DNA of 64,000 bases from Candidatus Azotimanducaceae bacterium. GTDB lineage: Bacteria; Pseudomonadota; Gammaproteobacteria; Pseudomonadales; Azotimanducaceae. The notes under the pieces are model-generated. The model searched no databases, was not told the origin of the DNA, and worked only from the letters and a program-made list of their open reading frames with translations. Shown piece after piece: positions 31,154-31,545 of this stretch; position 1 is the first letter of the stretch, and each line of letters starts with the position of its first letter. A program made the position numbers and the translations under genes. The DNA is taken from the NCBI GenBank assembly GCA_965216005.1, contig OZ244143.1:4103947-4167946 (forward strand), given 5' to 3'.

Positions 31154-31229
31154 GTCCCCTTCGTCTAGAGGCCTAGGACACCGGGTTTTCATCCCGGCAA
31201 CAGGGGTTCGACTCCCCTAGGGGACGCCA
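31154..31229 (+). tRNA. tRNA-Glu (anticodon TTC)
   Basis: 76 nt; acceptor stem GTCCCCT/AGGGGAC, anticodon arm CCGGG-TTTTCAT-CCCGG, GTTCGA T-loop, encoded CCA. Confidence 0.98.
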
Positions 31230-31545
31230 TCCACACCGAGAAAGCCTACTCCGTATGAACCCATGACTGCGGACTGTGAGGCCGTCGAACCTGCCTCGGC
31301 TTGACGGCTCGGCGATGCACGCCGAGCCTACCTCGGCACCGTTCGAGCAGTGCTCGAACGTGACTCCCCTAGGGGACGCCATCCACACCGAGAAAGCCTA
31401 CTCCGTATGAACCCATGACTGCGGACTGTGAGGCCGTCGAACCTGCCTCGGCTTGACGGCTCGGCGATGCACGCCGAGCCTACCTCGACACCGTTCGAGC
31501 AGTGCTCGAACGTGACTCCCCTAGGGGACGCCATCCACACCGAGA
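31210..31545 (+). repeat. tRNA-linked tandem repeat: two 152-bp units plus a third 32-bp core
   Basis: Core GACTCCCCTAGGGGACGCCATCCACACCGAGA at 31210, 31362 and 31514. The two units differ at one base (G31336 vs A31488). Confidence 0.97.

Follow-up and report, generated by a model that had tools for sequence, protein, structure and literature searches.

The window analysed here, a 64,000-nucleotide stretch of DNA from a Candidatus Azotimanducaceae bacterium, contains one tRNA gene according to ARAGORN, a tRNA-Glu(UUC) gene that is the only tRNA-Glu gene among the 41 tRNA genes of the genome. Directly behind it, Tandem Repeats Finder detected a repeat with a period of 152 at 31210–31545 (2.2 copies, 99% matches, no indels), in agreement with the tandem 152-bp units around three 32-bp cores that a preliminary description of the locus had reported; the core GACTCCCCTAGGGGACGCCATCCACACCGAGA starts at 31210, 31362, and 31514. 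The array has a hipBA-like gene pair and an HNH fragment as its neighbours. The features of the locus are as follows:

31081–31109, + strand: sigma-70-type promoter of tRNA-Glu (TTGACG, 17-nt spacer, TAGAAT, then a GC-rich discriminator)
31154–31229, + strand: tRNA-Glu(UUC) with encoded CCA, Rfam tRNA score 57.6 bits
31230–31381, + strand: unit 1, 152 nt, starting just 3′ of the tRNA CCA and running through the following CCA
31362–31381 and 31514–31533, + strand: tRNA-end copy GACTCCCCTAGGGGACGCCA, exact, 20 nt, tRNA positions 57–76
31382–31533, + strand: unit 2, 152 nt, identical to unit 1 except for A at 31488 (G at 31336)
31534–31545, + strand: third unit, first 12 nt only (TCCACACCGAGA), where the similarity stops

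The promoter, with 10/12 matches, is the single promoter match within 30700–31700, and TTGAC(T)-17-TAGAAT together with the downstream GCGCCGCTC is kept in two related genomes, G028 and G065. No intrinsic terminator (GC-rich hairpin plus T run) was found on either strand of 30700–31700, which bears out the earlier remark that none is evident before the third core. There are three copies of the tRNA-Glu end 20-mer where chance predicts 0.01, and the palindrome TCCCCTAGGGGA within the end copy is also present in the tRNA itself. We found no other occurrence of the 152-bp unit in the 5.47-Mb single-contig genome, and neither a further tRNA-Glu end copy nor a downstream island boundary in the window.

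Four public runs (X1–X4), none of them marked as RNA, hold the spacer; because they come from one study, possibly from the source sample, they are not independent of the assembly. The near-identity of the two units, and the fact that the short-read contigs of X1–X3 show only one of the two sequence forms (G at the variable base, with the A form absent), could point to a duplication made during assembly. This explanation is extremely improbable, as a 151-nt contig of X4 extends across the repeated core and so links one unit to its neighbour, breaking exactly at the variable base, so that the tandem junction is present in the reads. Moreover, the depth of the spacer contig is about twice that of its flanks in X1 (14.3 vs. 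7.4 and 5.4) and X2 (11.1 vs. 6.8 and 4.2), the ratio being unclear in X3, and many independent assemblies of relatives carry similar arrays. Read depth, which the preliminary description had named as a possible refutation, thus speaks against a single unit, and the tandem arrangement behind tRNA-Glu is real. Its one-base difference between spacers stands in the assembly (G at 31336, A at 31488) and fails to appear in X1–X3, so that a consensus error or a minor variant may underlie it.

In Escherichia coli, tRNA-linked repeats (TLRs) are defined by a position in tRNA or rRNA operons and by a 3′ end identical to the last 18–19 bp of the upstream gene, with 1–5 units at each of 10 loci (PMC8144298). 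They have been known since 1978 from the 178-bp tyrT/tyrV repeats (RtT RNA, rttR; Egan and Landy 1978; Rudd 1999; summarised in PMC8144298). The TLR sRNAs rrA, rrB, and rrF sit behind rrnA, rrnB, and rrnD; the TLRs of these three operons are transcribed and processed, and RNase E has been proposed to recognise the repeated end (PMC8144298). No function is established for them, and the one functional claim, for RtT, was withdrawn (PMC8144298).

The units described here have the same place, ending, and numbers. They begin at the base after the tRNA-Glu CCA, on the same strand, with a promoter upstream and no terminator between; each ends in an exact tRNA-end copy, of 20 nt at this locus and also behind tRNA-Cys, tRNA-Leu(UAA), and tRNA-Leu(CAG), compared with 18–19 nt in E. 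coli; and there are 2.2 units behind tRNA-Glu, 5.4 behind tRNA-Cys, 1.6 behind tRNA-Leu(UAA), and 3 behind tRNA-Arg(UCG). Like E. coli TLRs, they are hairpin-rich, non-coding, and directly behind a stable-RNA gene on its strand. The E. coli tyrT precedent named in the preliminary description therefore holds on every structural point, and the layout of the K-12 tyrV units is alike (178 nt, an end copy of 19 nt and, inside the unit, GGGGAAGGAT, which is complementary to the first bases of the copy). We consider it highly probable that the array is of the TLR type. Because the Rfam RtT model (RF00391, gathering score 45 bits) finds nothing with an E of 1 or less in the window region and 12 related loci, this assignment is one of layout, with no detected homology to the E. 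coli sequences; as a control, E. coli itself gives four RtT matches of 133–137 bits. At a permissive threshold, Rfam reports only the tRNA in the window region and the same 12 related loci.

Each unit is ordered as a variable leader, a piece complementary to the tRNA, a long hairpin (P2b/P3), a second hairpin (P4), and the exact 20-nt copy of the tRNA end. The internal features are:

31278–31364 and 31430–31516, + strand: 86-nt conserved core, covariance model R1, 103.4 and 100.7 bits, respectively
31284–31291 and 31436–31443, + strand: GTCGAACC, reverse complement of tRNA positions 52–59 (GGTTCGAC)
31292–31338 and 31444–31490, + strand: long hairpin, P2b outer and P3 inner
31292–31300 with 31330–31338, + strand: helix P2b
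31306–31314 with 31320–31328, + strand: helix P3, GGCTCGGCG with CGCCGAGCC, loop ATGCA
31340–31360 and 31492–31512, + strand: hairpin P4, CGTTCGAGC/GCTCGAACG around AGT

The strands of P4 in unit 1 lie at 31340–31348 and 31352–31360, and a T and the tRNA-end copy follow directly 3′. The A at 31488 in unit 2 breaks one P2b pair. Unit 1 has a folding energy of −65 kcal/mol (z = −3.75 against dinucleotide shuffles), and both strands fold about equally (z = −3.75 and −3.10). Covariation was assessed in a tRNA-Glu set of five units from three species (this genome, G028, and G065), with partners slid by 1–3 columns as a control: 96.7% of cells are paired, compared with 29–39% in the control, and 12 of 24 pairs changed on both sides. 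Among these tRNA-Glu species, seven of 15 pairs of the long hairpin and five of nine pairs of P4 covary, rising to 15/15 and 9/9 in the wider family, where 28 distinct cores give covariation at all 24 modelled pairs and 91% of cells paired (27–42% with slid partners). Across the cores, G–U pairs number 6 against 595 Watson–Crick pairs, with 3 in P3 and P4 together.

The fold is thus supported both across tRNA-Glu homologues and in the wider family, as the covariance analysis suggested at the outset was meant to establish. Of the hairpins named there, GGCTCGGCG/CGCCGAGCC and CGTTCGAGCA/TGCTCGAACG are present and covary; GCCGTCGA/TTGACGGC (GCCGTC/GACGGC) is present and, because it is invariant, unsupported, while a helix that competes with it, 31292–31300 with 31330–31338, does covary. 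The GTTCGA motif, taken earlier for a T-loop-like element of the last hairpin, proved incidental, and the relationship to the T-loop lies instead in the antisense GTCGAACC at 31284–31291. A small reading frame like E. coli tpr was considered and rejected, as single-base indels between species break any frame.

We then compared the same site across the genus, which consists of uncultured “Pseudomonadales bacterium” genomes. Wherever the whole gene was found, these genomes carry a single tRNA-Glu, except for one with a second copy on another contig. One unit of the same type lies behind tRNA-Glu in G028 and two in G065, each ending in CGT plus GACTCCCCTAGGGGACGCCA. These species are distant, since the neighbouring protein-coding genes are just 65–71% identical in DNA. 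Other relatives carry gene-less modules at this place instead:

Module B: ~230 nt, ends in GGGACGCCA
Module C: ~210 nt, ends in CCCTAGGGGACGCCA
Module D: contains a terminator

In D-type units (L017, L018), the tRNA is separated from the hairpins by a terminator-like hairpin and its T run, and the same is true behind tRNA-Arg in this genome. Module B lies directly behind the tRNA in G031 and behind unit A in G065; the tRNA-Glu and tRNA-Gly loci of G031 both have it, and in either case it carries the end of the tRNA at hand. The site is empty in G064 and filled in G060 with 992 extra bases, which finish in a tRNA-end copy. This insert consists of module C plus a block of ~770 bp, which lies between 37-nt repeats of hairpin and tRNA end and, read by eye, holds a putative toxin-antitoxin pair. 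Units at the tRNA-Glu site are accordingly found in some relatives and missing from others, a pattern that would also fit dispensable or mobile DNA.

The covariance model R1 was built on the 86-nt core with the tRNA end left out. It recovered cores in three genera of this Pseudomonadales family, behind tRNA-Glu, tRNA-Gly, tRNA-Pro, and tRNA-Leu genes and one 5S rRNA gene, so that the search of other tRNA loci and of relatives proposed in the preliminary description did yield homologues. At stable-RNA genes the matches lie directly behind the gene, on its strand, and mostly in tandem, with arrays of mostly 2–3 units in the genus. The loci are:

tRNA-Gly(GCC), G031, G036, G045, G058, and G019: 1–3 units, period 138 or 153 nt where tandem
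tRNA-Pro(CGG), G028, and also G036 (tRNA gene past the contig end): 3 units, ~200 nt
tRNA-Leu(CAG), G028: 3 units, 120 nt
tRNA-Glu, G048 and G025, and G130 and G213 (two other genera): 1 unit, with two cores of opposite orientation in G130
5S rRNA, G041: core between duplicated terminators
Without a nearby tRNA, this genome and the orthologous site in G023: tandem, ~150 nt
tRNA-Cys, this genome: five perfect 126-nt units and part of a sixth (5.4 units)
tRNA-Leu(UAA), this genome: 1.6 units
tRNA-Arg(UCG), this genome: three 123-nt units of another type, without an R1 match (best 9 bits)

The tRNA-Cys and tRNA-Leu(UAA) arrays of this genome score 32–40 bits with R1. Every tRNA-linked unit that we read ends in the end of its own tRNA, and for Glu, Cys, Leu(UAA), and Leu(CAG) the copy comprises exactly 20 nt and begins at position 57 in the T-loop; across the family, the duplicated stretch ranges from 10 to 67 nt. 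Units within a multi-unit array are identical or nearly so, and cores at different loci are divergent (25–48 bits), with a handful per genome. Relative to the neighbouring tRNA, the core is inverted in module B of G031 and in G025. The family thereby differs from the E. coli TLRs in several respects: a single 86-nt three-helix core stands behind many different tRNAs in three genera, some cores are inverted and others stand where there is no tRNA, and there is no Tpr-like reading frame. R1 gave no score in E. coli.

Immediately ahead of the core, and in most units 91–101 nt from the unit end, there is a piece complementary to the tRNA across the point at which the end copy starts. At the present locus this piece, GTCGAACC, spans the junction of positions 56 and 57, forms part of the invariant CCGTCGAACCT, and corresponds in its position within the unit to the inverted pieces behind tRNA-Cys, tRNA-Leu, and tRNA-Gly. 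The pieces shift with the junction:

T-loop junction: GTCGAACC, tRNA-Glu
T-loop junction: TCGGAATCGAAC, tRNA-Cys
T-loop junction: GACTTGAACC, tRNA-Leu(CAG)
T-stem/acceptor junction: GGGAAACGAGACT (G036) and GAAACGAGACT (G045), tRNA-Gly
Anticodon-loop junction: CGGGATGAAAAC (G213) and ATGAAAACC (G048), tRNA-Glu

In the two anticodon-loop cases, the end copy comprises the complete 3′ half of the tRNA. One portion of the inverted piece can base-pair where the end copy begins, which would close the core, and the remainder is complementary to the true tRNA only. For the tRNA-Glu 8-mer, a control for cognate specificity failed, as several other tRNAs of the genome match that stretch better. Specificity of the inverted piece would be borne by the Gly, Leu(CAG), Cys, and anticodon-loop variants and by E. 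coli Tyr. Inspection of the tRNA-Pro and 5S units by eye revealed no guide-like piece.

Tandem tRNA-Gly(GCC) and tRNA-Leu(CAG) genes with periods of 110–150 nt are common in Gammaproteobacteria, and the unit periods of 120–153 nt are similar enough to raise the idea that the units are decayed tandem tRNA copies of which just the 3′ end is still recognisable. We regard this as very unlikely: the units show no sense similarity to the 5′ parts of tRNAs (local scores 12–16, shuffled mean ~13), neither ARAGORN nor Rfam calls a tRNA inside them, and one core is common to units behind different tRNAs.

REP, BIME, and REPIN elements resemble the units in being GC-rich intergenic hairpins with Watson–Crick stems that lie 3′ of transcription units, in either orientation and sometimes clustered. 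Unlike the units, they lack a copy of the neighbouring gene end, and they form families of tens to hundreds of near-identical copies per genome, whereas the 152-bp unit occurs at its own locus only. An identity with REPs or REPINs was rejected on this single-locus distribution and on the handful of divergent R1 cores per genome; no link was found between the cores and the one Y1 transposase of the genome.

Integration by an integrase classically leaves the 3′ end of a tRNA directly repeated, with the repeat beginning in the T-loop or anticodon loop, and integration is said, in a classification by Williams from 2002, to occur at sublocations in the anticodon loop, the T-loop, and the 3′ end of tRNA genes. 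The att repeats of islands and prophages, and those of integrase-less cis-mobilisable elements, share with the units the loop-started repeats, the filled and empty sites, and small cargo between repeats, comparable to the putative toxin-antitoxin block of G060. The array could accordingly be the scar of a tyrosine-integrase element with an att site running from the T-loop to the 3′ end, either its arms only or a minimal cis-mobilisable element, later duplicated. An Arenibaculum tRNA-Glu end copy that by eye adjoins a putative integrase gene, the partial tRNA-Glu copies on the viral contigs L057 and L060, and the pair of empty (G064) and filled (G060) sites are in line with such an origin.

Several observations weigh against it. 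An integrase needs the same core in attP and attB, and here one conserved core adjoins gene ends from no fewer than five different stable-RNA genes; two-sided changes have kept the hairpins intact in three genera, as decaying arms would not be expected to do; and a unit of 120–152 bp is very small for a double-stranded circle. Unlike att repeats, moreover, the units are gene-less stretches of 120–190 bp with covarying stems, one core going with many tRNA ends and no integrase. We found no integrase near any array of this genome, its seven Phage_integrase matches all lying away from the array, and reading by eye revealed no recombinase in the 40 kb behind tRNA-Glu of G021 or in the short stretches that follow this gene in G028, G060, and G065. 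Genome, metagenome, viral, phage, and plasmid collections yielded no parent element, and BLAST of the unit against phages and plasmids gave no match. Whole-collection scans for the tRNA-Glu end not preceded by C returned, besides relatives, only classical att-like sites and two D-type units, and the phage att sites of the viral scan are unrelated to the unit. We therefore judge a plain integrase scar unlikely. The suggestion of an integrative element inserted twice is weakened in its classical form by the many tRNA ends and the missing integrase, and survives as a non-classical, guided form, considered below.

Given that no terminator intervenes, we propose that transcription starting at the tRNA-Glu promoter would continue through the units and make them a trailer of the tRNA. 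The repeated tRNA end may recruit the enzymes that trim tRNA 3′ ends, with RNase E-type cleavage and exonuclease trimming predicted to cut after every GCCA and to release folded RNAs of ~152 nt in a fixed ratio to the tRNA; unit number could shift through unequal recombination or slippage between units. The 3′ETS-leuZ of E. coli (mentioned in PMC8144298) is likewise a tRNA trailer freed by tRNA processing; it differs in being a single short spacer without a repeated tRNA end, tandem units, or a conserved multi-hairpin core. A co-transcribed RNA released at the repeated CCA ends, one of the two possibilities raised in the preliminary description, is on these grounds the best-supported mechanism that we infer. 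We put the probability of a TLR array with trailer processing, taken jointly, at roughly 0.6; for processing into discrete RNAs, our expectation is somewhat short of even.

A conserved promoter upstream, no terminator after it, and unit boundaries that coincide with tRNA processing points speak for RNA, as do the transcription and processing of TLRs at E. coli rrn operons (PMC8144298). The near absence of G–U pairs is unusual and speaks against a fold selected as RNA, as do the occurrence of cores in either orientation and the similar folding of both strands. The core at a locus without a tRNA, and the terminator-like hairpin ahead of the hairpins in D-type and tRNA-Arg units, count against the trailer reading.

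The main rival of trailer RNA is guided insertion, according to which the units are small gene-less DNA insertion elements: a hairpin core of ~86 nt would be set into a tRNA loop or acceptor end (T-loop, anticodon loop, or acceptor end) by an enzyme acting in trans, the tRNA stretch from the insertion point to the CCA and beyond being duplicated and the inverted piece serving as guide or target footprint. Stems that are almost purely Watson–Crick and cores in either orientation are consistent with DNA elements of this kind. The inverted piece tracks the junction (T-loop for Glu, Cys, and Leu; T-stem/acceptor for Gly; anticodon loop for Glu of G213 and G048), the empty site of G064 has its filled counterpart with 992 inserted bases in G060, and module B is placed differently in G031 and G065 and takes the local tRNA end at each of its two sites in G031. 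Against these points, no enzyme is tied to the units: the single Y1 transposase lies ~41 kb from the tRNA-less array, its nearest, with all others at a much greater distance, and no TLR array has any of the seven tyrosine recombinases beside it. The cores at different loci are old and divergent rather than recent copies, arrays stop at arbitrary points within a unit, like ordinary tandem repeats, and the variable length of the duplicated stretch, the better fit of the tRNA-Glu 8-nt piece to other tRNAs, and the Pro and 5S units in which no guide-like piece was seen add to the doubt. On balance we hold guided insertion to be possible, at odds well below even.

A broader and still less probable version would make TLR-type units, here and in E. 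coli, the products of an undescribed guided insertion into a loop of stable-RNA genes. The inverted piece would pair across the chosen junction and the 3′ part of the gene would be duplicated, leaving the gene intact. Such a process would explain the fixed loop start of the end copy, the shift of the inverted piece with the junction, and small gene blocks between such repeats without a visible recombinase.

The tRNA-Glu array adds to a known but unexplained kind of repeat, as TLRs, known since 1978, are still without an accepted function or origin. In the literature that we searched, the following have not been reported for E. coli TLRs: a core shared behind many tRNAs, deep covariation that defines the fold, a near absence of G–U pairs, both core orientations, the movement of the inverted piece with the junction, and relatives that differ in whether a site is filled or empty. 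With these features of the family, it becomes testable whether the units act as RNA or as DNA, and whether they arose by insertion or by duplication. The array is also relevant to annotation, since an array behind the only tRNA-Glu of a genome could otherwise be read as an island scar.

Since HipA of E. coli acts on Glu-tRNA synthetase, we asked whether the HipA-like kinase next to the array is connected with tRNA-Glu. The idea was rejected: a different gene lies beside hipA in all six relatives whose hipA flank was inspected, and the distance from hipA to tRNA-Glu ranges from 17 kb to 800 kb in the three relatives with both on one contig. Elsewhere in this genome, two tRNA-Ser genes each have a single copy of the tRNA tail behind them.

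Besides the array behind tRNA-Glu, tandem arrays occur at other places in the same genome (single contig C1), and a related unit lies apart from its tRNA gene in a relative, G047:

C1 ~28300-28934, minus strand: array behind tRNA-Cys(GCA)
C1 ~1764380-1764752, minus strand: array behind tRNA-Arg(UCG)
C1 ~5053900-5054500: tandem array of ~150-nt units with the same type of hairpin core (L082)
G047 C1 ~2070300-2070760: tRNA-Glu-type unit, 440 kb from the tRNA-Glu gene (L083)

The tRNA-Cys(GCA) array consists of five perfect 126-nt units and a partial sixth, with the last 20 nt of tRNA-Cys at the end of every unit and a 12-nt antisense piece of the T-arm in each. 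At a distance of 1.5 kb from this array, tRNA-Leu(UAA) is followed by 1.6 units whose last hairpin is nearly the same as that of the tRNA-Cys units. The three 123-nt units behind tRNA-Arg(UCG) differ in type from the core-bearing units. In each of them two short hairpins are accompanied by a degenerate T-arm that carries a short copy of the tRNA end, exact at 8 of the last 10 positions. Downstream of them lies a core-like set of hairpins, to which R1, the covariance model built on the 86-nt core, gives no match.

Related units and cores are also found away from tRNA genes. No tRNA is near the L082 array, which adjoins a convergent gene and is represented by one unit at the orthologous site in G023. 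The displaced L083 unit ends in a T-arm copy in which the acceptor part has been replaced, and this suggests a rearrangement between such repeats. Behind a 5S rRNA gene of G041, repeated copies of the rrn terminator enclose the core together with module B, the ~230-nt gene-less module seen behind tRNA-Glu in some relatives; this layout parallels E. coli rrnA, rrnB and rrnD, where tRNA-linked repeats (TLRs) lie between dual terminators.

In G060, a ~770-bp block occupies the region 222-993 nt behind tRNA-Glu and carries, on the reverse strand, two small genes that on inspection by eye look like a toxin-antitoxin pair. The block is bracketed by 37-nt repeats, in each of which a hairpin is combined with the 3'-terminal 15 nt of tRNA-Glu, and its site is empty in G064.

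Two features flank the tRNA-Glu array in the window:

31594-33167, minus strand: hipBA-like pair, a HipA-like kinase (HipA_C 1e-43, Couple_hipA) and an HTH_31 protein
30814-31092, plus strand: open frame lacking a start codon, which encodes the C-terminal portion of an HNH endonuclease, HHIQHWCDGGETKLDNLILLCSHHHTLMHEGG

The hipBA-like pair is convergent with the array, and compared with the relatives inspected its position beside tRNA-Glu is particular to this genome: in six of six relatives hipA has a different neighbour, and where one contig carries both hipA and tRNA-Glu, the distance between them ranges from 17 kb to 800 kb. The HNH frame lies between a conserved 222-aa gene upstream and the tRNA-Glu promoter downstream, and is probably the remnant of an insertion, since the matching spacer of G028 and G065 lacks it. 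Elsewhere in the window, a 53-nt direct repeat (37667-37719 and 41293-41345) recurs with 96% identity at a spacing of 3.6 kb.
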